Source: a virus
Taxonomy: Duplodnaviria; Caudoviricetes
DNA length: 25,153 nucleotides
Reading direction: 5' to 3' (one strand)
Virus record (IMG/VR): IMGVR_UViG_3300032269_000370
Coordinates: 1-25,153 of that record
Positions 1 to 17,333 of the stretch are shown here, piece after piece (position 1 is the first letter of the stretch; each line of letters begins with the position of its first letter). The notes beneath the pieces were generated by a model. The model was given only the letters and a program-made list of their open reading frames with translations, was not told the origin of the DNA and made no database searches. Made by a program: the position numbers and the translations under genes.

Positions 1-420
1 CCATTGTGTTTTACGATGGCTACTAATACGATCTGCTAAAAAGTTTTGTAGTCCATATTCTCTTACTGCTGTGGCCTCATCAAAGGTGTCTTGTAATGTA
101 GTAATAACAGTGGCAAGATCGCCTAATAATACTAAAAACATTTCTTGAGGATCTGTAATCATCGCATCACTGGGTGTGTCAGCAATTTGGCTGTCAGCAA
201 TAATGTCCTTTAAATCGCCTTTGGGGAATACTCCCAAACGACGCAGTTCCTCAGCATAGTCATCAATTGATTCTTGTGCGTCAGTATAGATGTCCTCTAA
301 CAGTGTGTGATATTGTAGGAAGTCATCGCCCATTACTGCCCAATGAAATTGATGTGATTTTAGATAAAACGCAAAGTTGTTGGCAAATGCCATTAGTAGG
401 CTGGCAATTAGTTTGTCCAT
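1..420 (-). CDS. dps: Dps (ferritin-like DNA-protection protein), 3' end runs off the window
   Basis: Not in the ORF track. Hand translation from ATG at 420: MDKLIASLLMAFANNFAFYLKSHQFHWAVMGDDFLQYHTLLEDIYTDAQESIDDYAEELRRLG...NFLADRISSHRKTQW. It has the Dps signature HWxVxGxxFxxxH, the DxxAE ferroxidase ligands and the C-terminal HxKxxW. Open for 140 codons. Confidence 0.9.
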   Translation of the reverse strand, partial: MDKLIASLLMAFANNFAFYLKSHQFHWAVMGDDFLQYHTLLEDIYTDAQESIDDYAEELRRLGVFPKGDLKDIIADSQIADTPSDAMITDPQEMFLVLLGDLATVITTLQDTFDEATAVREYGLQNFLADRISSHRKTQW

Positions 421-3130: not shown

Positions 3131-3502
3131 TTATTCGCTCCAAGGCAGCGGCTCATTGGCATCACTGTTGATTGGATTATCTGATTGACCCAGTATGTTT
3201 TTACCTAACCAAATCAACATAACAGCATTGCCCTGTAGAGCCAAACGCAATTGTGCTTGTCTTAGGCTTTGTTTTAAATTATTGCGTCCGCGATCCAGTT
3301 CTGGTCTAAAGTTATAAGTCAGCGTGTTTTCATCGATGTCAAACCATTCGCATATCTCGTGGTTCTTACAGCCAATCTGCGCTAATTTATAAACTTCTTC
3401 AGGTGGCACTACCACATTCTTTCTGCTGACAATGCGGCCTTCTACAATTTTTGAACCATATCTAGTTCGCTTTACTTTTTCTTTAGGTTGTTCATCACTC
3501 AA
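3131..3502 (-). CDS. terS: Terminase small subunit (HTH-type)
   Basis: Immediately upstream of terL. HTH-like VYKLAQIGCKNHEICEWFDIDENTL and C-terminal GNAVMLIWLGKNILGQSD. Start moved to TTG at 3502, which has a GGAG SD and overlaps the upstream stop. Confidence 0.8.
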   Translation of the reverse strand: MSDEQPKEKVKRTRYGSKIVEGRIVSRKNVVVPPEEVYKLAQIGCKNHEICEWFDIDENTLTYNFRPELDRGRNNLKQSLRQAQLRLALQGNAVMLIWLGKNILGQSDNPINSDANEPLPWSE

Positions 3503-5327
3503 CGGTTTTCTCCAAATTAAATGCCGCAGCAAGATTAGTATCAACAACCACTTGATCAATGCGGCTCTGCGGATTCGCGAGTTCTATAATAGTAGCGTCT
3601 TGAGTGTGCGTAAATTTATAGGCACTGTTGTTTCTTAACTTAATTATGTAAAATATCTCATCTAGCACGGTATTTGGCCTGGAATTGAAGAATTCTTTAA
3701 CAGTTGTGCTGCCTTTTTGCTGAATATATTTTGTCAGTGCGTTATTGACTTCGGCAGTGTGAGATTCTTGTTCTGTAAAACTCAAGCCTATAAAATCACT
3801 GTATAACTGAGCATCGCGTAATGCTGCTCGTGATTCTGCTGTGGGTGCTTGACCATAATGCTCATCAACCACGCGGTGTATGGCTGACTCTGCTACTCTA
3901 ATACACCATTTGTCGTGTGCTGTGGTCCAATCTCTATCCCAGGGTATAATGGTACGACAAACGTGAGCCGCTTCAAAGGCAGTATAACAGAAAGTTTCTT
4001 CAACACTGGGTATAATGGCCAACGCTGCTGAACGCATAGCATCAACTTTACTGGCACCGGTTAATGCCACGTGAATTGTGTGTTCTATGCCTTCTTCTAA
4101 AAAGCGTCGTTTAAACTTGTCAGCAGACTTTTGACTGGGTGTAATCAATATGGCAGGATGACCACTGCTCTTACAAGCGCGAATAAACACTTCGGGATTT
4201 TTGCGTGGCTCATATGGACCAATATACAATATACCACTGCGATTGCTGAAATCTGTGTCGTCTAAACACTCTAGCAATTCAGGTTGTCCCAGCGGTGGGG
4301 TCATTACTGTGATGCGATTCTCAGTGACCTGTGTGTGTTGTAAAAATTCACCCCGTGTGTATTCACTTTGGCAAATAATTCGTATTGGGCTGGTTTCTAA
4401 TAGGCTGCGTGTTAAGTCAGTTAAAAAGTTATCTGGTCCGCGTCCTATGTCCATTTCACTGTGAGTGACATAATACATATTGTCGTGTTGCCGATCTAGG
4501 CCAATACTGATCGCAGCCAACAGTGTGTCCAAACTGTTGATGATCAATACATCATAACTGTATGTGGATAACGCTCGCATTAATCCTGCTCGCAAATCCA
4601 CAGCGTCTTTTAATCGCACAATGGGACTGCGCATAGCAATGTCCGCATCTAGATTGCTTTTTACAATGTCTGAATCGGGACTGATCCAATTGGCAATGTC
4701 ATTGTATCTGTCAAACTGTGTATTGGCGACATCACTGTCATTGCTGATAATATCAACTTGAACACCACTGCGTAATCCCCATTCTAACCAGCCATTGATA
4801 TAAGTGGTGACCCCACGATTAACATAACTGTGCTTGAGAACTACCAAACCTACACGCCTAGTTATAGGCTCATCGCCTCGCGCTTTTGCCAATTCTTCTG
4901 CTGAGGTAGCATAGTTTTTACCATTTAATAATCTGTCAATTTCCAATTCGCTGAATGCGGTCATTGAGGCGGTGAGACTGAGATCATCATTCAATCTGCT
5001 CAATAACTCTCGCAATTCTGTGGTCAATAGTGGATCATCCCAAGCAGCATATTCATTGGTTTTATTATCAGCCAATCTATAGGCCTGTGCTTGCTCCTCA
5101 GTTAATTCATTGGCAACAATAACTGGGATCTTAACCAGTTTAAGTCGTTTAGCCGCTTTGTATCTAGTATGTCCAACAATGATAACACGATTGCTATCAA
5201 CCACAATAGGCTGTTGAAAACCATATTGGCGAATAGATTCTACTACAACATCAACAGCCCGGTCATTGCGGCGTGGATTAGCAGGATAGGGCTTAATACT
5301 GGCAGTGTCGGCCATTTCGATAATCAT
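3495..5327 (-). CDS. ParB/Srx N-terminal domain fused to a GT-B (GT4-like) glycosyltransferase
   Basis: N-terminus PYPANPRRND..SIRQYGFQQPIVVD..IIVGHTRYKAA..ADNK is a phage ParB-like domain. The C-terminal half has YIGPYEPRKNPEVFIRA and IPSVEETFCYTAFEAA (the GT4 E-x7-E motif). Confidence 0.82.
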   Translation of the reverse strand: MIIEMADTASIKPYPANPRRNDRAVDVVVESIRQYGFQQPIVVDSNRVIIVGHTRYKAAKRLKLVKIPVIVANELTEEQAQAYRLADNKTNEYAAWDDPLLTTELRELLSRLNDDLSLTASMTAFSELEIDRLLNGKNYATSAEELAKARGDEPITRRVGLVVLKHSYVNRGVTTYINGWLEWGLRSGVQVDIISNDSDVANTQFDRYNDIANWISPDSDIVKSNLDADIAMRSPIVRLKDAVDLRAGLMRALSTYSYDVLIINSLDTLLAAISIGLDRQHDNMYYVTHSEMDIGRGPDNFLTDLTRSLLETSPIRIICQSEYTRGEFLQHTQVTENRITVMTPPLGQPELLECLDDTDFSNRSGILYIGPYEPRKNPEVFIRACKSSGHPAILITPSQKSADKFKRRFLEEGIEHTIHVALTGASKVDAMRSAALAIIPSVEETFCYTAFEAAHVCRTIIPWDRDWTTAHDKWCIRVAESAIHRVVDEHYGQAPTAESRAALRDAQLYSDFIGLSFTEQESHTAEVNNALTKYIQQKGSTTVKEFFNSRPNTVLDEIFYIIKLRNNSAYKFTHTQDATIIELANPQSRIDQVVVDTNLAAAFNLEKTVE

Positions 5328-5378: not shown

Positions 5379-6053
5379 TTAACAGCCTAAACCTTGTAAA
5401 GCATTAGCCAGATTTTGATAATGCCGCACTACGCTGGCCATACGCGTTTTAGCAGCATCTACTACTCGTGGATGTAGGAACTGTCCGCCAAAGCGCTCTA
5501 ACTGAACATAACCTAATGCGTGATTAGTGCCACGCTGGCCTTCAATAACTCGAAAATGTGTAAAACCCAACGCTGCCCAATATGCTGCCTTGGACCTAAT
5601 GCGACCTAATTCTAAACTAATGGCCACGCACTCTAAATGTTGCCGGGCAAAAGTATAAGCATAAGTGGCTATGCCTGCGGACCTATGCGCAGGATCAATC
5701 CAAATAAGTTCTAATGTTCTGTAATCAGTCGCGTCAGTGGGTAAAAAAGTAGAAATAAAACCTATATCTACTGTGTCCAGCGTAATAGCATAAGCCCGAC
5801 GCTGTCGATCATTGGTCAAATAATCTTCTTCATAATGATTGCGTGTCGCTGCGCCACCTGCTGCTTCATATTCATCTGCCCAACGATCTACTAATGCGGG
5901 CATCTGTAGCATACCAATGGGCCTAAACTGAACACGATCGCGTAATTGCCCAATTTGATTACAAATTGTATTTTGATGCTGTGTAATATCTGCGTAATAA
6001 CGGTTGGTCCTAGCACGCCATAATTGCTCGTCTCGTTTGCTTGCCTTGCTCAT
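5379..6053 (-). CDS. GNAT-family acetyltransferase-like protein
   Basis: GNAT motif A LELIWIDPAHRSAGIAT and downstream AAYWAALGF. AGGAG SD supplied by repeat module 1. Confidence 0.7.
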   Translation of the reverse strand: MSKASKRDEQLWRARTNRYYADITQHQNTICNQIGQLRDRVQFRPIGMLQMPALVDRWADEYEAAGGAATRNHYEEDYLTNDRQRRAYAITLDTVDIGFISTFLPTDATDYRTLELIWIDPAHRSAGIATYAYTFARQHLECVAISLELGRIRSKAAYWAALGFTHFRVIEGQRGTNHALGYVQLERFGGQFLHPRVVDAAKTRMASVVRHYQNLANALQGLGC

Positions 6054-6155
6054 CGCACACTCCTAAAATTGCGTAGCAGTATCGCTACATCAACAATTAT
6101 ACACAGGTCGCTCCTGAAGAGCAAGAACGACCCTGTGTGTTGCTTTTACGCTACA
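6054..6155 (-). repeat. Regulatory repeat module 1 (palindromic box, hairpin, sigma70 promoter, leader hairpin, SD)
   Basis: Core CTACATCAACAATTATACACAG at 6085-6106; -10 TATAAT 6096-6101; -35 TTGCTC 6119-6124 (17-nt spacer); box 6138-6155. Confidence 0.92.
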
Positions 6156-6793
6156 GTCTGCTCAGTGTCGAAGCAGTCCCAGGTGTTATCTGGATCTGGC
6201 TCACTAACATCGACACATTTTACATTCTCGCCACGCAGGAGTCGCATTAGGAAATGCTGTCCTACTACCTTAGGGTCAAGATATTCTTGAAATAAATCCA
6301 TTACATCACGCTGATACGCACAGTAGCCAGTCTTTAATACCAAATCTAAATAGCGAGTCATAACCGATTCAGCATCGTCATCTTCGACCCAGTCTTCAAG
6401 GCTTTGTTCTATGTCGTACCAGGCCATAAAGTCGGCCATAAATTCTGTGGATAAAATGCTATCGTGAATGTCTTGATAACAAGCCTCTAATTCTTCATCA
6501 TCTAGTTCCCAAATCTCTAAATCAAACCACAAGCGGAAACTACCATAACCATCGTCGTCCATCTTGTAAAAATGATTCCACCACAGTGCTCGTGTCTTGT
6601 ATGCTGCCTTGTAGGCCTTTTTTCGACGGTTTGCTATTAGCCTATCGTTGTCTTGGTTTAACTGCTCTCCAAGCATTTTGATTTGATCAAAATGAATAGA
6701 CTGATCCACTCCAAAAAAGCAGTAAATTTTTGGTTCGTCCCAGGAATTCTTGGGTTGAACAAATCTAAAACCAGCCCTAGTCTCATATGACAT
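6146..6793 (-). CDS. Hypothetical acidic protein (215 aa)
   Basis: Long ORF with a GGAG SD, bounded exactly by repeat modules 2 and 1. No recognisable family. Confidence 0.8.
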   Translation of the reverse strand: MSYETRAGFRFVQPKNSWDEPKIYCFFGVDQSIHFDQIKMLGEQLNQDNDRLIANRRKKAYKAAYKTRALWWNHFYKMDDDGYGSFRLWFDLEIWELDDEELEACYQDIHDSILSTEFMADFMAWYDIEQSLEDWVEDDDAESVMTRYLDLVLKTGYCAYQRDVMDLFQEYLDPKVVGQHFLMRLLRGENVKCVDVSEPDPDNTWDCFDTEQTVA

Positions 6794-6905
6794 AATATAC
6801 TCCAGTGTGTGTTAAAAATATCAGTAGCAACTCGCTACATCAACAATTATACACAGGTCGCCCCTGTAGAGCAAGAACGACCTCCTGTGTTGTTTTTACG
6901 CAACA
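6794..6905 (-). repeat. Regulatory repeat module 2
   Basis: Core 6835-6856; -10 6846-6851; -35 TTGCTC 6869-6874; box TGTTG-N8-CAACA 6888-6905. Confidence 0.92.
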
Positions 6906-7072
6906 ATGCGGCAAGTGCGTTGAACTGTGCTGCCCGGGCAAGTGTGATCACTACACTGAATGACTGACCTAACCCCAGTCTCGTAATCCACAGTATTGGT
7001 TGTGGTGGTTGTGACATTACAACCATCATCGGCGCAGCCTGCCAATAGGCATAGAATAAACAGGATTCTCAC
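6896..7072 (-). CDS. Small Cys-rich lipoprotein (58 aa)
   Basis: Not in the ORF track. MRILFILCLLAGCADDGCNVTTTTTNTVDYETGVRSVIQCSDHTCPGSTVQRTCRIVA*. LAGC lipobox, GTGA overlap with the upstream stop, AGGA SD, and the stop falls in the module-2 box as for the other cassette genes. Confidence 0.8.
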   Translation of the reverse strand: MRILFILCLLAGCADDGCNVTTTTTNTVDYETGVRSVIQCSDHTCPGSTVQRTCRIVA

Positions 7073-7299
7073 GCTGTGTCCTTTGAGATAAAATAGAATT
7101 CATTGGGCTTGCGATAGCGATTTACATAAAAGTGTCGTTGGCTAAATCCAGTGGATGCTGTATATTCGGGCACTGAATTATAAGGACCTTGTGGTGTCAT
7201 AATGGCCTGTGCTACTCTACCCCCAGTGCGTAGTTCGCCCTTTTTAAGTCGGCTCATTAATGCCCGGGACTCGGCAGTGTGCTTCGTACCGGGCCGCAT
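7069..7299 (-). CDS. Stand-alone NUMOD3-type DNA-binding protein
   Basis: GTKHTAESRALMSRLKKG matches the NUMOD3 pattern, followed by a TPxGxYxSxxE HTH-like segment. No nuclease domain. Confidence 0.65.
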   Translation of the reverse strand: MRPGTKHTAESRALMSRLKKGELRTGGRVAQAIMTPQGPYNSVPEYTASTGFSQRHFYVNRYRKPNEFYFISKDTA

Positions 7300-7547
7300 T
7301 ATGCTGTCACCTCTTCAATAGTGTATTCAACTTCATCCATACCACCATCACTGTCATCGTCGTCCGACTGCCAATCCCAATCAATGTCAGTGTCTTGATC
7401 GCAAACCCATTCAGCAAGCCCATCATATTCTGAATGCTGTCCTGATTCGATTTGTTGATACAGTTCTGGATCAATGTCAATTGTGGCCTCAAATACACTT
7501 CTGCGATAGATAGTGTAATAACCATTTTTAATAACTGTAATTTTCAT
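7299..7547 (-). CDS. Hypothetical acidic protein (82 aa)
   Basis: Start moved to ATG at 7547 (GGAGG SD, ATGA overlap). TAATG coupling to the next gene. Confidence 0.75.
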   Translation of the reverse strand: MKITVIKNGYYTIYRRSVFEATIDIDPELYQQIESGQHSEYDGLAEWVCDQDTDIDWDWQSDDDDSDGGMDEVEYTIEEVTA

Positions 7548-7675
7548 TCTGCGGCCTCCAACCATTGCTGTTCTTCGTTGGTTAAACTGCGAGTTTGTTC
7601 TGCTTCACGCAACTCAGCAATTAGATCTTCAGTTTGTTCTTGTGTCCAGGAACCTGTATGCCAATTGGGTTTCAT
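7544..7675 (-). CDS. Hypothetical micro-protein (43 aa)
   Basis: Not in the track. MKPNWHTGSWTQEQTEDLIAELREAEQTRSLTNEEQQWLEAAE*. GGAGG SD and ATGA overlaps at both ends. Confidence 0.75.
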   Translation of the reverse strand: MKPNWHTGSWTQEQTEDLIAELREAEQTRSLTNEEQQWLEAAE

Positions 7676-7839
7676 TCTGCGGCCTCCTGTAGTAGTTCAG
7701 TAAAAGCGGTTTCGATATGTGTTCGAACTGTATCGTATTCTGGATATCTGCGTAAGAGTCGAGCACACTCACGCAAATACTTTTGAACCTTTGACAGTTC
7801 TGCTGTCTTTAACAGCATACGATGTTCTTCGTTTGTCAT
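7672..7839 (-). CDS. Hypothetical micro-protein (55 aa)
   Basis: Not in the track. MTNEEHRMLLKTAELSKVQKYLRECARLLRRYPEYDTVRTHIETAFTELLQEAAE*. AGGAG SD and ATGA overlaps at both ends. Confidence 0.75.
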   Translation of the reverse strand: MTNEEHRMLLKTAELSKVQKYLRECARLLRRYPEYDTVRTHIETAFTELLQEAAE

Positions 7840-8027
7840 TCTGCGCACTCCTGTTTCTGTTGTGAATCGGGCCTATCTATACTGTGTCGATCAAGCGTCA
7901 ATTGTCTAGCCAAAAACCTAACTGGCATATTTGACCAAATTGACTGTTGCTGTGCTGTTGGCTCAATGCCACGCAGTCGTAAAAACTCACAATGAGCCTG
8001 TATTATGTTATGTCTGCTGTATCTCAT
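7836..8027 (-). CDS. Hypothetical protein (63 aa)
   Basis: First gene after module 3, with a TAAGGAG SD. Confidence 0.75.
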   Translation of the reverse strand: MRYSRHNIIQAHCEFLRLRGIEPTAQQQSIWSNMPVRFLARQLTLDRHSIDRPDSQQKQECAE

Positions 8028-8134
8028 AGCACTCTCCTTAGTTAAAAATGTGTAGCAGTATCGCTACATCAACAATTATACACAGGCCGCTCTCAAAAAG
8101 CAAGAACAGCCTGCTGTGTTGTTAATCTACAACA
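8028..8134 (-). repeat. Regulatory repeat module 3
   Basis: Core 8064-8085; -10 8075-8080; -35 TTGCTT 8098-8103; box 8117-8134. Confidence 0.92.
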
Positions 8135-8307
8135 ACATCGTTTAGACTCAAAAACGCTTTGAGATCGCACAGTTCGTCCTCGTCAATACTCCACAGGTCG
8201 TCTGTGTCGTAAGCGAACCTACAGGCCTGATCCAGCGACCACTCACGATCATAGCCTACCCTGCGCAAACGGTCAAACTCTCGACGCGCCAAATCTTCGA
8301 TATCCAT
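8122..8307 (-). CDS. Hypothetical protein (61 aa)
   Basis: Start moved to ATG at 8307 (MDIEDLARR), after the TAAGGAG SD. The track start lies inside the repeat. Confidence 0.75.
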   Translation of the reverse strand: MDIEDLARREFDRLRRVGYDREWSLDQACRFAYDTDDLWSIDEDELCDLKAFLSLNDVVVD

Positions 8308-8413
8308 CGCACTCTCCTTAGTTAAAAATCTGTAGCAATTCACTACATCAACAATTATACACAGGTCTGCTGCCTAGAGCAAGCAGAACTGTGTGTGTTG
8401 TTTTTATGCTACT
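8308..8413 (-). repeat. Regulatory repeat module 4
   Basis: Core 8343-8364; -10 8354-8359; -35 TTGCTC 8377-8382; box 8396-8413. Confidence 0.92.
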
Positions 8414-8609
8414 GTAGCGTAATGACCTTACACGCAGCCTCAATTACTGCTACGCGAGCCGCAAAAACATCTTCAGGCAAATCAGTAAAAATGAAATTGT
8501 CTGGATCGTTGGGATCTTGATACATAAGACCCTGTTCGACAAAGGCCGCTAGCATACGATCGCAGGCCTCTTGTATTTCCCGCTTCTGCTGTTTTTTAGA
8601 TTTACGCAC
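8409..8609 (-). CDS. Hypothetical protein (66 aa)
   Basis: Start moved to GTG at 8609 (MRKSKKQQK), after the TAAGGAG SD. Confidence 0.72.
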   Translation of the reverse strand: MRKSKKQQKREIQEACDRMLAAFVEQGLMYQDPNDPDNFIFTDLPEDVFAARVAVIEAACKVITLQ

Positions 8610-8715
8610 AACACTCTCCTTAGTTAAAAATCTGTAGCAATTCACTACATCAACAATTATACACAGTTCAAGTCGTTTGAGCAACCTGAACTGTGTGTGT
8701 TGCTTTTACGCTACA
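8610..8715 (-). repeat. Regulatory repeat module 5
   Basis: Core 8645-8666; -10 8656-8661; -35 TTGCTC 8679-8684; box 8698-8715. Confidence 0.92.
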
Positions 8716-9005
8716 ACGCTGAACTTGTGTGCTGTGGCCAACAAGCAATCGCGAATGGCCTCATCATCGCCAGCAAAATCGATGTCCAGCAAATAACGAG
8801 CAGCCTCATAGCGTGTCATCGCTCGAGGCAAGCCGATAATGTCGATCTTTGCGTTGCCCCACTTGGCCAAATGCGCAGTGCGACCTGTGCTGTTGCTAAC
8901 ACGAAATCTCCAACGATACTGTGGAATAGGCAGTGTGCCCACCTGAGTCTCGCCAACGAACTGCTGGCTCACCCCAGCGTAAATGTAAGTGTCTTCTCGA
9001 CGCAT
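8706..9005 (-). CDS. Hypothetical phage protein (99 aa)
   Basis: AGGAG SD and bounded by modules 6 and 5. Confidence 0.78.
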   Translation of the reverse strand: MRREDTYIYAGVSQQFVGETQVGTLPIPQYRWRFRVSNSTGRTAHLAKWGNAKIDIIGLPRAMTRYEAARYLLDIDFAGDDEAIRDCLLATAHKFSVVA

Positions 9006-9117
9006 TTCAAACTCCTATAGTTAAAAAATGTAGTGCTCTCTATTCACTACATCAACAATTATACACAGTTCAGGCTGTTTGAGCAACCTGAACTGTGTGT
9101 GTTGTTTTTACGCAACA
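9006..9117 (-). repeat. Regulatory repeat module 6
   Basis: Core 9047-9068; -10 9058-9063; -35 TTGCTC 9081-9086; perfect 12-bp stem ACACAGTTCAGG/CCTGAACTGTGT; box 9100-9117. Confidence 0.92.
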
Positions 9118-9320
9118 GTGGCAAATTTATACATTAAACTGCTAATGGCCATAACAGTGGCCTCTGCCTTGTGCTGTTCTGGAAAATTATAAGTTGTATA
9201 AAGACTGTTTATAAAATGTTCAGTGTGGTCATCGCTGACATATCCCAATGTCTCGAACCACCACGCTGCTGAATCGTAAAGTTGATCAGCAATACTATCT
9301 ACTGTTAAATCTGCGCTCAT
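9108..9320 (-). CDS. Hypothetical protein (70 aa)
   Basis: AGGAG SD and bounded by modules 7 and 6. Confidence 0.75.
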   Translation of the reverse strand: MSADLTVDSIADQLYDSAAWWFETLGYVSDDHTEHFINSLYTTYNFPEQHKAEATVMAISSLMYKFATVA

Positions 9321-9434
9321 CTCAATAACTCCTATAGTTAAAAAATGTAGTGCTCTCTATTCACTACATCAACAATTATACACAGGAGTCAGGATCAACG
9401 CAACCACTATTTTGTGTGTTGTATTTGAGCAACA
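9321..9434 (-). repeat. Regulatory repeat module 7 (first in transcription order, weak hairpin)
   Basis: Core 9364-9385; -10 9375-9380; -35 TTGCGT 9398-9403; box 9417-9434. Confidence 0.9.
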
Positions 9435-9450
9435 GTTGGGAGTGTGGGGT

Positions 9451-9474
9451 CGGTGTTGTATTGGCGCAACACCG
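9451..9474. promoter_or_regulatory. Extra (eighth) palindromic box upstream of the array
   Basis: CGGTGTTG-TATTGGCG-CAACACCG: the same TGTTG-N8-CAACA box with perfect 8-bp arms, 37 bp from the module-7 box. Confidence 0.7.
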
Positions 9475-9520
9475 GTGGTTATTAATGTTAAAACGGTCTT
9501 TTGTTTTTGAACGCTATTGG

Positions 9521-9718
9521 CTACGCCATTAATGCTGTATTTTTAATTGGATTTAATACAATGGTTTTAATTGCTTGGCCACCCAAATTCATCGTGGCCC
9601 CAAGTTGATAGTAATGTGTTTCAGCCATTGCCCTATCGCTGTAATAAAAGTCTGCTGTGCGATTGCCAGTCAGTGTAATTGCCAAGTGATATTGGTCGGT
9701 ATTATTGTTTTTTCGCAT
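9521..9718 (-). CDS. Hypothetical protein (65 aa)
   Basis: Start moved to ATG at 9718 (MRKNNNTDQ), which has a GGAG SD and avoids a long overlap with the upstream gene. Confidence 0.65.
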   Translation of the reverse strand: MRKNNNTDQYHLAITLTGNRTADFYYSDRAMAETHYYQLGATMNLGGQAIKTIVLNPIKNTALMA

Positions 9719-10163
9719 TGATCTTTCTCCAAGAATTAAAACGTTGATCAGGTGGTAGTGTAATGGCCAATTTAATAGGCCAGCCTCTGTGTATGCGCCC
9801 CAGCACTGTAGCATAGGATATGCCCGAAGCCTCACTCCATTCTGTTATCATTTTGGTTCGCTTTTGGTATGTCTTTTTAATTGTGCTATCAAAAGTTCTA
9901 GCCAATTCTCTGTGTGTGCGCCATTCCAAATTGTCTGCTATCCAACCTTCGCTTCGATCTCGCCTACATAACATATGTCGCAGTGTTGGTGGTGTTCCAC
10001 AATTGGCCAGCACATAAGTTTCAAAACTTCTATATGTGGGCCATTCCAGTGGTAATTGATGTGCCCAGGCATAATCTCTGTGACCGGGTCGTTGCCTTAT
10101 ATCGCGTATGGTGCGATAAGCATTCCAGATTTTTTTAATATTAGGATTGGCTAGATTTGGCAT
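9702..10163 (-). CDS. HNH-endonuclease-like protein, probably catalytically degenerate, with a C-terminal HTH
   Basis: WPTYRSF..CGTPP..LCRRDRSEGWIADNLEWRT follows the phage HNH pattern (dRidn.gY.p.NcrWat). The C-terminus is ITEWSEASGISYATVLGRIHRGW. Start at 10163 is uncertain. Confidence 0.65.
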   Translation of the reverse strand: MPNLANPNIKKIWNAYRTIRDIRQRPGHRDYAWAHQLPLEWPTYRSFETYVLANCGTPPTLRHMLCRRDRSEGWIADNLEWRTHRELARTFDSTIKKTYQKRTKMITEWSEASGISYATVLGRIHRGWPIKLAITLPPDQRFNSWRKINAKKQ

Positions 10164-10626: not shown

Positions 10627-12153
10627 TTACTCAGTTTCCTCAGTGCGAATATCTCGACTGTAAGTGATTCTATACTCAAAGCCTGCCATATCGCGTCGTT
10701 TAGTCAATTCCAATCCAGGAATGTTAGCAGCAATGTCTTTGATGTCTCGTCCAAACTTCTGAACATTCATATCACATCGCTGATTGCCACTTGTGCTTTT
10801 TTCATACTCCACATACTCTTCAAACAGTGCTTGAGCACGAACACGCTCTTCTCTAAACAATTCATATGGCCTTGATCGCAGCCAAGCCTCCATTGTGGTT
10901 ATTTGCCGCTTTATGGCCTGTGTGCGTTTAATGTCAGCCAACACAGCACGATTCAATTGTAGTGGGCTAGGTTGTCGTTCATTTACACTGCGCCATAATC
11001 CAATAAAATTAACACGATCAAACACAGCCCAGTCCATAACCGGCTTACAGTCAATTTGATAAAAGCGTCGCATACCTGTATCGTCAAATATCAACCTGCT
11101 TACATCCTTGTTGGTCGTACCAACAAAAGTAGCGCGATTTACAATTTGCGTATCCACATTCTTGCTGAGTATTCTGCTGTTGAAAGTGTCTTCTGTAATG
11201 CGTCGTTTAATGTCCTCAATATTGCTGGTTGCGCTACGCCCCATCTCATCAAAAAACAGCACATAGTTTCTCCAAATATCGTGATTTTTGCCCTCAGTTA
11301 TGTCCTGAAAGTTAGTATTAGCAAAAAAGTCAGCAACTACCCCACAGATATATTTTTTAACCAGTGTGCTTTTGCCAGCGCCTTGTGGGCCATAAAATAT
11401 TGGCATCATATGATCTTCTACAGTATAGCCAAACATCTTGCGTTTAATTTGCCAAACAAAATGTTTCAGCACTGTGACGGTTTCCGGCACACGCACCTCA
11501 GTTATACTATTAGCCAATGCCAGCCATTGTTCTTCCATCATTTCAGTTAGCACAGGGCTTTCCCAAGCCACGCTGGTCATTAAATCGCTGGCTATGTCAT
11601 CTTTAACGCGATTCATCCAAACACTAATCGCATTTTCTATTTGCCGTTCTGTAAATGGCAGTTTAAATCGCCTATTACACATAATCAACTTCATCAACAT
11701 TTCTTTTAGGGCAAATGTTTTAGGATCGCTGTAAATTACCTTAATGCGATCACGCTCGCTCAGTGTTTCCAATTGGCTTTTATTCACTACAAATCCGGCA
11801 CCCAAATCATATGGTGTGTCTATGGTAAACATTCCTTGAAAAGTCATTCGTGTCTGCCATTGCTTTAACAGTGCGTCCACGAAATCGTATTCTGTTTCTG
11901 GTACGGTGCCCAATTGACTGCGCAGTGTTTCATTGCTGACAAATTTGCGACTTATGCTGAGTATGTCCTTAGCATCCATATCATATAGGATTGCTATTTC
12001 GCGTCGATCCGCTAGTGTTAAACTGTTGTGATCCAATACAGTTAAAAATTCACCAAAGTCAATTGGTGTTCCTGATCTATAGCGTTCTTTTGCTAGATCA
12101 ATTGCTTCTTGATTTTGCCTGCTGCTGACAGCAGTCGTCACTGTTAGTGCCAT
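10627..12153 (-). CDS. VirE/VapE-family P-loop helicase (replication protein)
   Basis: Walker A GPQGAGKS, Walker B VLFFDEM, FVGTTN and DDTGMRRF are characteristic of VirE/VapE-like helicases. No recognisable primase domain in the N-terminus. Confidence 0.85.
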   Translation of the reverse strand: MALTVTTAVSSRQNQEAIDLAKERYRSGTPIDFGEFLTVLDHNSLTLADRREIAILYDMDAKDILSISRKFVSNETLRSQLGTVPETEYDFVDALLKQWQTRMTFQGMFTIDTPYDLGAGFVVNKSQLETLSERDRIKVIYSDPKTFALKEMLMKLIMCNRRFKLPFTERQIENAISVWMNRVKDDIASDLMTSVAWESPVLTEMMEEQWLALANSITEVRVPETVTVLKHFVWQIKRKMFGYTVEDHMMPIFYGPQGAGKSTLVKKYICGVVADFFANTNFQDITEGKNHDIWRNYVLFFDEMGRSATSNIEDIKRRITEDTFNSRILSKNVDTQIVNRATFVGTTNKDVSRLIFDDTGMRRFYQIDCKPVMDWAVFDRVNFIGLWRSVNERQPSPLQLNRAVLADIKRTQAIKRQITTMEAWLRSRPYELFREERVRAQALFEEYVEYEKSTSGNQRCDMNVQKFGRDIKDIAANIPGLELTKRRDMAGFEYRITYSRDIRTEETE

Positions 12154-12381: not shown

Positions 12382-12410
12382 ATTATAAACACACTCAATC
12401 TGTTTGTAAA
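12382..12410 (-). promoter_or_regulatory. Sigma70-type promoter
   Basis: TTTACA (12410-12405), 17 nt, TATAAT (12387-12382), with an A/T-rich upstream tract. The predicted start near 12375 coincides with the first hairpin of the leader. Confidence 0.7.
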
Positions 12411-15350: not shown

Positions 15351-17333
15351 TTAACCTTGTGGATCAGTTGATATACCAAAATCCAAATTTCTTATTGTGG
15401 CAGTTGTGGCTGTGACCGCCGCAAATGTCACCGAACTGGTGGTGAATAATGCTTGATTAAATGGATTTGGGTCTTTAAATCCCAATGTGCCCGCACCACT
15501 GGTATACATAACTTGGCCTGCCGTACCATCCGTCCCGGGTAAAATATAAGCATCATTTATTTGAACACCGCTACCGTTTACAACCAATCGCTCAATGCCA
15601 TCTGCCAAACTAAATGCTAAAATACTACCAACATTGGTTCCAGTGAAATCCACTGTGGCAAATGCCTGAATCTTGGCACTTAATGGCCTACCACCTGTAT
15701 CAGTTTGCCCAACAAAATAAATGCCACCTATTTCATCATATTGTAATGTATTCTGGTATCGAGTTAATGTAATTGGGTTGGTAAATGTTGCTGTTGTGGC
15801 TGCCAATGTGGCCACGGTGGCTATGTTGGTTATGGTCAGTGTGGCAAATGTTCCAGTGGTGGCAGAAACACTGGCAAATACCACACTGCTGGTGGTGAAT
15901 AACTTTTGATTGGTTATGGTGCTGACGTCAAAGGTAGCAGGAGTTGTCCAAGCATATCCACTTCCAGTCCAACTTAAATAAGTGCTGGCAGTGGTAGATG
16001 ATGAGATATAATTAGTTGTGGCTGTGCCAAATGACACTCTTTGATATGGTATGGCATAGTCACTACCATCACGAAGATTATTAGCATTGGCCGCATTACC
16101 TACATAGATACTGGCAGTGTTGGTAAATGCGGGACGATTGCCTGATCCACCACTGACCAATAACCAACCAGCCGATCCTTGACCCATAAATCCTGTGGTA
16201 TTGGGACCGTCTTGAACCAATAATGCTCCATTGCCAGATCCAAGCCCTAATATATTGGCAGCATATCCAACCTGTGTAGTTGAAGTATTGCTGTAAGTTA
16301 TTTCTTTAGTTGAAGTATTATAAAATAATATTTGTGTGCTGGCATTATTAGTAATAGGATCGACAAATAATCCACTATTTGGTGTAGTTAATGTGCTATT
16401 ACTGGCATTGAGAATGATGCTATTTGCGGCTATAGTAGCAGTAAAAGCATTCTTTCCAAGGATGATTCTATCTGTGCCAATTCTTAAACGCTGATTATCA
16501 ACTCCATCTGGGCCTGCCGCAATTAACAGTGTATTGGTCATTGATATCGAACTTTGGCCTGTGACATTATCAGTAATAATGTTACCAATAATGGTATTGT
16601 TATTTTGACTATTATTTGCGAGACCCTTGCCGGCACGATATCCAATGGCTATGCTGTCAGATACATTTCTTGCTTGTAATCCTTGATTACCTAATATTGT
16701 GGTATTGTCGCCATTGCCTGTATAATTGCCAATGTTAATGCCATTGTAATTAGTGCCACCTCCATATCCCGGGAAGTTGGTCATTGATATACCCTGTGTT
16801 AGGGTATTATAGATCATTATTAATCTGGATACTACGGCGGTTGAATCACCCAACTCAATTTGATTTTTGACTTTGACTATGTTAAATGTGCCACTGGTTG
16901 CTGATAATCCAGATGGGAAGTTTGTGCCGGTATTATTACTATATTGATTAGTATAACCAATAATAGTATCTACTGCCAATGTCTTGTATATTTGAACTCC
17001 ATATGGCCCAATAAAACTTACCCCACCGGAATTAACTGAATTAATAGCCAATGTTCCGGTAGATTGTATTCTTGATACTGGGCCATCCTGAAACAATGAT
17101 ATACCGGCAATGGTGGCTATATTAGTAATGGTGAGATTGGCAAATGTCACACTGGAGGTGGTGAATAACGCTTGATCAGTAACCGTGTTGATATTGAAAC
17201 CAGCCGGCACCGTTGCCCAGGTATTATCACCACGCAGATATGTGCTGCTGCTGGCCGCCCCAGTGGCACTGAAATTTTCTAATAATACCGATGCTGCTGA
17301 CAGCATCCCGGGTTGTATTCGCGTTAGTGCCAT
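15351..17333 (-). CDS. Tail fibre protein
   Basis: 660 aa, rich in Thr/Gly/Asn. [10 protein letters not shown] and [22 protein letters not shown] fibre motifs, and three copies of a [12 protein letters not shown]-like segment. Confidence 0.8.

Follow-up and report, generated by a model that had tools for sequence, protein, structure and literature searches.

We analysed a 25,153-nucleotide (nt) stretch of DNA from a siphovirus-like phage (the whole of IMG/VR record IMGVR_UViG_3300032269_000370, CheckV completeness 93%; below, the window), in which seven copies of a repeated module separate small genes of unrelated sequence. The modules are predicted σ70 promoters with terminator-like and leader hairpins, and they probably also serve as short islands of homology through which the recombination machinery of the host adds, removes and exchanges the unrelated genes between them.

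As can be seen from Table 1, the seven modules, each 102–114 nt long, all lie on the minus strand, like every gene of the window. The first-pass annotation had reported an invariant 22-nt core, and a pattern scan indeed found it exactly at 6085, 6835, 8064, 8343, 8645, 9047 and 9364, with no further copy at up to three mismatches elsewhere in the window and none in 100 shuffles. The order of parts is the same in 7/7 modules: an 18-bp dyad, 13 nt, TTGC(TC/TT/GT), 17 nt, TATAAT, a leader hairpin at the predicted +1, a T-rich stretch, a Shine–Dalgarno (SD) sequence and the start codon, so that a σ70-like TTGCNN-17-TATAAT promoter is predicted in every module. The annotated layout needs correction. 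It placed a hairpin before the −35 box, whereas in modules 1–6 the box lies inside a 12–15-bp hairpin (−17.8 to −24.4 kcal/mol), which is missing from module 7 (−3.9 kcal/mol). The stop codon of the upstream gene falls within the dyad in modules 1–6, as had been proposed (offsets 7, 7, 10, 2, 7 and 7); at module 7 it lies 89 nt upstream. The modules fill their intergenic spaces except at module 7, which occupies only part of a 200-nt gap; an eighth dyad stands alone in the same gap.

Twelve cargo genes follow the seven modules, and no pair of them is similar at E≤1e-3, in agreement with the first-pass annotation. Between modules 3 and 2 the unit is an operon of six coupled genes instead of a single gene. 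Inside this operon a second class of junction recurs, a 16-nt sequence (GGAGGCCGCAGAATGA) with an SD and overlapping stop and start codons. Unrelated upstream genes share C-termini encoded by the junctions, xVA-stop at the dyads and EAAE-stop at the coupling junctions. The lipoprotein-like and the 99-aa genes of the window have such junction-encoded ends, whereas their aligned homologues do not.

The modules are mosaics of one another. The closest pairs change from segment to segment: the dyads of modules 1 and 5, and of 2 and 6, are identical; the hairpins of 1 and 2, and of 5 and 6, are most alike; and in the right part the closest pairs are 4 and 5, 6 and 7, and 1 and 3. In Mantel tests, similarity was correlated within the hairpin segment (r=0.48, p=0.015) and not between the hairpin and the right part (r=−0.11, p=0.68). 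Mosaic boundaries are not confined to a single position within the module, and copies share 22–59 nt of exact identity.

We compared the orthologous interval of relatives, upstream of the small terminase gene (TerS), gathered by searches with TerS and the large terminase (TerL) and by one metagenome match; labels beginning with L or G denote the compared DNA stretches and genomes, respectively. Within an eight-member TerL clade (96/98 support) the number of modules varies from seven in the window to three in L111, two each in L108 and L119, one each in L009 and L103, and none in L001 and L106. The cargo at this site is almost wholly different; the only window gene clearly shared is the lipoprotein-like one (seven relatives), in addition to one weak match. 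L103 and L111 are 89% identical across 1813 nt from TerS to TerL, and upstream of this the only DNA that they have in common is the modules (77–90%) and a second promoter (95% over 60 nt). The single module of L009 follows L108 until dyad A finishes and rejoins it at the −10 box and leader of module B (85%), as expected of a chimeric module. Between L119 and L106 homology breaks at the lipoprotein stop and returns just before TerS, and L108 and L109 (92–95% identical) differ by presence or absence of the lipoprotein gene, with the boundary at the coupling junction. The modules of L009 and L108 have better −35 boxes (TTGACA/TTGACG) at the same 17-nt spacing. The same cargo order without breakpoints at modules, which would have spoken against the proposed exchange, was looked for in the relatives and was not found. 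Exchange of cargo bounded by the modules is well supported by these comparisons.

Broader searches returned few modules. The exact core had no match in viral_contigs. A CAACAC-gap-core pattern gave 15 matches, none of them a module, and a 19-mer gave seven matches in metagenomes, one of which is a true module (L098) and six unrelated; repeats in L027, L028 and L034 are coding repeats, and Rfam returned nothing above the gathering threshold. Synechococcus phage BUCT-ZZ01 (ON615601.1; L461:1150-1250) has 21 nt identical to the core at a promoter-like site between genes, preceded by a degenerate dyad.

Evidence at the level of reads came from assembled Logan contigs, which drop rare variants (X1–X4, contig sets taken run by run). 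In X1, possibly the source sample, the region is covered with no sequence differences; the X1 contigs break at modules 1 and 3–7, and the order of cassettes at modules 3–7 rests on the original assembly, as no listed Logan contig bridges it. These breaks, together with related genomes of depth 6–16 that share parts of modules, would be expected if the seven-copy array were partly an assembly chimera of co-occurring strains with fewer modules each. The same could be said of the depth of the X1 cassette contigs (window 8057-9356; mean 26–31, against 20–24 in the flanks), where noise, shared cassettes or extra copies are possible and which we did not take as evidence of circles. However, all cassettes are present in X1 without differences and at backbone-like depth, an X1 contig spans module 2 (6078-8081), an X3 contig spans core 1 (6045-6283), and X2 and X4 independently contain cassette pieces, making a chimeric array very unlikely. 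The contigs also reveal variation at the junctions. In related genomes within X1, two contigs of depth 6 and 10 connect the gene region at 9521-9721 to sequence of the dyad type, and one contig has a better −35 box enclosed by a different hairpin. Loose contig ends fall at 7541, 7832, 7855, 8115 and 9117; inspected by eye, they show a homologue of the gene at 7672-7839 that is preceded by a different neighbour at the coupling junction and whose own end lies in a dyad arm, and in X2 and X3 other reading frames begin at the same coupling-junction ATG.

We infer the following mechanism. Host RNA polymerase would start about 7 nt past TATAAT, and the leader would fold into a 5′-terminal RNA hairpin that stabilizes the mRNA; such hairpins restrict access of RppH and RNase E. 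The predicted leader stem is found in 25/25 promoters of the clade selected by pattern (4–12 bp, starting 6–8 nt past the −10 box; 16 G-U of 172 pairs; z<−1.5 in 18/25) and fits a stabilizing RNA hairpin better than a protein site. It appears to be specific to the clade, because a GTAG leader follows only 5 of 110 dyad promoters of other viral stretches. The −35 hairpin, which folds better on the coding (mRNA) strand in 6/6 cases (modules 1–6; 13 G-U of 85 pairs), may terminate or attenuate the transcript of the upstream cassette. The dyad may be bound by a dimeric protein, and its reading as GTT-GCR-TAA would give the upstream gene its last codons and stop. Crossovers between co-infecting phages would take place within the 22–59 nt of exact identity by RecA-type or slippage pathways of the host. 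A moved cassette would bring its own promoter, SD and stop, and the 16-nt SD/stop-start junction would serve likewise inside operons.

Several observations weigh against this proposal. Neither excised circles nor deletions joining two cores of this genome are listed among the assembled contigs. With 6–7 modules and low power, the internal control for the right part was weak (r=0.19, p=0.19), and a 'cassette shell' test was not significant (r=0.13, p=0.30). Outside the clade modules are rare, with a promoter-plus-leader match in 11/92 TerS loci (more than 600 nt of upstream sequence available, up to 7 kb searched). Most of the compared relatives are 70–90% identical, at which distance gene-end breakpoints could reflect selection for viable joints. 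As for the predicted signals, an automatic scan placed 0/7 module promoters above threshold, because their −35 boxes match at only 3–4 of six positions; the hairpins lack a clean U-run, and the −35 hairpin is called terminator-like in modules 2, 5 and 6 only; and the 25 clade promoters were picked by a pattern containing GTAG, which is the first arm of the leader stem.

It is possible, though we consider it unlikely, that the repeats are only co-regulated promoters and that genes were gained by illegitimate recombination, the joints surviving at modules since elsewhere they destroy genes. The absence of circles among the contigs and the non-significant shell test agree with this explanation, as does the same dyad-promoter with a V-A-stop overlap in unrelated phages. 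There, the upstream stop is most often at dyad offset +7 (11/71 contexts), so compaction alone can produce the overlap of stop and dyad. However, the segment-wise mosaicism of the seven modules and the chimeric module of L009 require exchange between copies, and in L103 and L111 the modules are the sole homology in the interval.

Integrons likewise carry arrays of small genes, the stop codons of which fall within a dyad that closes the cassette (attC). A site-specific system of this kind, in which a recombinase supplied in trans would recognize single-stranded DNA hairpins or the dyad, would account for the stops within the dyads and for the long imperfect hairpins seen in DNA folding, which are reminiscent of attC sites. 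Unlike integron cassettes, each unit here has its own promoter; no IntI was found, and there is no GTTRRRY/RYYYAAC core arrangement. Searches of the window for an integrase, resolvase or annealing protein were negative, in line with the first-pass annotation, which saw no recombinase gene there, and so were those of the 57 non-structural open reading frames (ORFs) of four relatives that are 96–100% complete (one of the four has an endonuclease VII domain). Mosaic boundaries lie at several places in the module rather than one, the −35 hairpin is absent from module 7, from L098 and from module A of L108, and the hairpins favour the mRNA strand. A site-specific mechanism is accordingly improbable, and homologous exchange at the modules by host functions remains our preferred reading.

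The closest known counterparts are the promoter/stem-loop elements (PeSLs) of the T4-type phages RB49/phi1, PST/T4 and nt-1/KVP40 (PMC2839356; PMC4122927). As described in the available parts of these papers, PeSLs are intergenic units of about 100 nt, reaching from the upstream stop to the SD and start, with a σ70 promoter and a stem-loop that may overlap the −35 box; they cluster before ORFans in variable regions, with indels and replacements at the units and a chimeric single unit after an apparent deletion, all of which has its parallel here. Promoter, terminator and mini-circle activities have been demonstrated for PeSLs (PMC2839356; PMC4122927); for the present modules promoter and terminator functions are predicted from sequence. 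These modules also differ in residing in a siphovirus-like phage of about 30 kb in which recombination genes were not found, and in their additional parts, namely a fixed dyad of 18 bp containing the stop codon, a leader hairpin conserved at the 5′ end and the second class of junction. On sequence and comparative features, the modules are best read as PeSL-like elements outside the T4 group, as the first-pass annotation suggested, rather than as members of the PeSL class. Its further suggestion of an independent cassette system was not borne out: the dyad-plus-promoter part is common to many unrelated phages, and the genome (93%) and the four near-complete relatives yielded no recombinase.

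The P2 Ogr site lies near −55, and the dyad of the modules is centred near −57. Other known elements were compared from the available portions of the respective papers. The dyad fits the TGT-N12-ACA of P2 Ogr late promoters (PMC3931495), but the window has no match to the PF04606 zinc finger of Ogr/Delta, and across phages the dyad lies 3–30 nt from a perfect −35 box, unlike a phased activator site. It shares TTGT/ACAA arms with the site of Pseudomonas HexR, whose spacer is 7–8 in contrast to 6 here (PMC5489143). The leaders of modules 6 and 7 have TGTAGT/ACTACA arms as in RccR sites; those sites are, however, 15 or 28 bp long (PMC5489143), as against 23 here, and variation in the leader has the pattern of an RNA stem. 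The start-associated sequences of cluster K mycobacteriophages (SAS, and ESAS in extended form; PMC3203893) are likewise repeated SD-containing motifs before small non-structural genes of siphoviruses, about half with an upstream inverted repeat, but they comprise a 13-bp SAS and 17-bp arms with a variable 4–13-bp spacer, whereas in the modules the arms and the fixed spacer each measure 6 bp and are accompanied by a consensus promoter and two hairpins, and there is no sequence likeness. None of the HexR, RccR, PhaR (PMC12542648) or Ogr motifs or the ESAS repeats fits the dyad or the module as described in these portions, and the available text of PMC5343134 contains no HexR motif. In the literature searched (most subscription papers, supplements and motif-logo figures lay outside its scope) no description of the dyad, or of PeSLs in a siphovirus, was found.

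The dyad extends far beyond this phage. Joined to a perfect TTGACA/TATAAT promoter by a 12–15-nt gap, it occurs in 126 stretches in 28/64 parts of the viral contigs; among 110 distinct stretches, the positions left free by the search pattern show T 99 times and Y and R 108 times each, so that the motif reads TGTTGY-N6-RCAACA. For a 0–30-nt gap we estimate about 2,400 viral stretches, compared with 2 for a reversed control over the whole collection. Prokaryote genomes gave 15 matches at gaps of 11–20, several of them on small phage-like contigs. The spacer is strict (TGTTG-Nk-CAACA is found 59 times at k=8 and 0–6 times at other k), and the distance to the −35 box covers 3–30 nt and peaks at 6, 9–10 and 14–16. 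A hairpin was rejected, with pairing outside the 18 bp in 30–39 of 130 cases and positions 6/13 pairing in 66/130, about chance. Given its strict spacer, the lack of covariation between its arms and its variable distance from the −35 box, the dyad is likely a protein-binding site of flexible position.

Among cultured phages the dyad is carried by Burkholderia phage BCSR5 (14 copies), Achromobacter phage Motura (4), Synechococcus phage BUCT-ZZ01 (2), Ralstonia phage phiRSP (1) and Ruegeria phage RpAliso (1); three other records have none, and two further dyad queries by BLAST against cultured phages gave mostly chance matches. These phages were chosen by motif match or TerL similarity, and a Burkholderiales host is for that reason a lead only. 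G001 (L328, G001:C1:37124-41159), an unrelated larger phage, has six dyad-plus-consensus-promoter modules before small ORFs, with xVA-stop in two of the dyads. Homologues of the 99-aa cargo lie behind dyads in 6/9 loci, which had themselves been retrieved by the dyad; this family was rejected as a universal dyad binder, as it was not found in 5/5 dyad-bearing records, one of them only 28% complete. A global host regulon was likewise rejected on the replicons and genomes covered: a 1.7-Mb Caballeronia replicon has no strict match, five Burkholderiales secondary replicons (8.7 Mb) have one match with one mismatch, inside a gene, and two rRNA promoters have no full dyad. Matches were found in 3/41 genomes of one phylum and in 8/41 of a Bacteroidota order, the latter at a control-like level outside a phage-like contig of G004. 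It may be, though we put this forward only tentatively and think it less likely than not to be correct as a whole, that thousands of unrelated lytic phages have recruited a single protein, probably encoded by the host (Burkholderiales-type), for which the dyad serves as operator, and that the dyad-promoter unit is a shared cassette grammar that moves accessory genes among phage families, from 30-kb siphoviruses to 150–230-kb phages, pre-wired to the same host signal.

Other arrangements of the dyad were noted in passing. Three dyads stand head to tail with zero gap in L300:1060-1113 (G004:C18), on the phage-like contig of a Bacteroidota metagenome-assembled genome. In L222, L253, L254 and L255, dyad-promoters are followed by a boxA-like GTTCTTT(T)AAAA, in some cases before tRNA-like sequence, resembling leaders of rRNA operons. 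Divergent promoter pairs of dyad-plus-leader modules are present in L324-L325 (G002:C1 ~15500-16500, between TerL and portal) and at L133:13240-13460.

Table 1. Modules, junctions and genes of the array and its borders (window coordinates; positions of promoter boxes and transcription starts are predicted)
Feature	Position	Strand	Remarks
Module 1	6054..6155	−	dyad 6138-6155, with stop of upstream gene; −35 6119-6124, within hairpin; −10 6096-6101; predicted +1 ~6089, where leader hairpin starts; SD
Module 2	6794..6905	−	dyad 6888-6905; −35 6869-6874; −10 6846-6851; gives last codons and stop of lipoprotein-like gene
Module 3	8028..8134	−	dyad 8117-8134; −35 8098-8103; −10 8075-8080
Module 4	8308..8413	−	dyad 8396-8413; −35 8377-8382; −10 8354-8359
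Module 5	8610..8715	−	dyad 8698-8715, same sequence as in module 1; −35 8679-8684; −10 8656-8661
Module 6	9006..9117	−	dyad 9100-9117, same sequence as in module 2; −35 9081-9086; −10 9058-9063
Module 7 (transcribed first)	9321..9434	−	dyad 9417-9434; −35 9398-9403; −10 9375-9380; no −35 hairpin, no stop in dyad
Eighth, lone dyad	9454..9471	unassigned	within hairpin 9449-9476, upstream of module 7
Coupling junction GGAGGCCGCAGAATGA	7544..7559	−	16 nt; SD and overlapping stop/start; upstream ORF ends EAAE; X3 loose end at 7541
Coupling junction GGAGGCCGCAGAATGA, second copy	7672..7687	−	same 16 nt
Coupling junction, variant	7836..7851	−	flanked by loose ends of X2 (7832) and X1 (7855)
Conserved 66-aa gene	9521..9721	−	upstream edge of variable interval in relatives
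Cargo, 70 aa	9108..9320	−	no family match; ends TVA-stop in dyad 6
Cargo, 99 aa	8706..9005	−	large unnamed phage family; ends VVA-stop in dyad 5
Cargo, 66 aa	8409..8609	−	no family match
Cargo, 61 aa	8122..8307	−	acidic; no family match
Six coupled cargo genes, 63, 55, 43, 82, 76 and 58 aa	6896..8027	−	76-aa: weak NUMOD3 match; last: lipoprotein-like
Cargo, 215 aa	6146..6793	−	no family or Atlas match; ends TVA-stop in dyad 1
Cargo after module 1, 224 aa	5379..6053	−	GNAT acetyltransferase-like; PF00583, E 1e-5, small margin to cut-off
ParB-N and glycosyltransferase fusion	3495..5327	−	between array and TerS
Small terminase-position gene (TerS)	3131..3484	−	downstream edge of variable interval

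The cargo itself gives few clues to function. The first-pass annotation had suggested host-takeover or anti-defence genes, for which we found no support: 10/12 genes have no Pfam match at E≤0.01, and 0/12 match PHROG or PADLOC. The 99-aa family is large (1230 clusters at E≤0.001, 585 at 1e-10); the window protein lacks the K/A/P-rich tail of its aligned homologues and has a confidently predicted fold (pLDDT 80), which matched no solved structure, only models from uncultured phages. The 58-aa lipoprotein-like gene (6896-7072) encodes an LAGC lipobox-like motif and five invariant cysteines and is found in the variable interval of seven relatives; PHROG and PDB searches gave no useful match. It is possible that its product is a superinfection-exclusion protein.

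The window further encodes tail genes (among them tape measure, Dit-like and hub genes), a VapE-like helicase/primase, an HNH gene, terminase and portal. The part missing from the genome corresponds to capsid and neck genes in G007; near-complete relatives are 27–33 kb, and the best cultured TerL matches are about 50% identical (DSL-LC06, HTVC202P). On its tail genes, genome size and TerL the phage is not a T4-type myovirus. The ParB-N/glycosyltransferase fusion was not found by tblastn in the loci of the seven closest relatives. A full-length homologue (54%) stands before TerS in L324:10255-12090, a phage whose TerL is only 50% identical; in L001 and L009, which are closer relatives, an FkbM methyltransferase occupies the corresponding interval. 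L001 and L009 also share with the window a ferritin/Dps-like gene (window 1-420, minus strand) directly after the portal gene. A pattern search of viral_contigs found no relative of the helicase/primase (10627-12153), at whose position G007 and G009 have unrelated genes of 350–390 aa. Upstream of it, at 12382-12410 on the minus strand, is a promoter match (TTTACA-17-TATAAT, 11/12) with a 230-nt leader that contains several inverted repeats and with no dyad.

The above results extend gene shuffling of the PeSL type from large T4-like phages to a minimal phage of about 30 kb in which recombination genes were not found, and supply naturally occurring pairs of phages whose swapped genes are surrounded by no homology other than promoter modules. 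More promising still as a lead is the dyad, which resembles an operator and precedes consensus promoters in cultured Burkholderiales phages as well as in the estimated 2,400 viral stretches. An available phage–host pair could serve to isolate its presumed binder, and the motif could help to assign hosts to uncultured aquatic phages.

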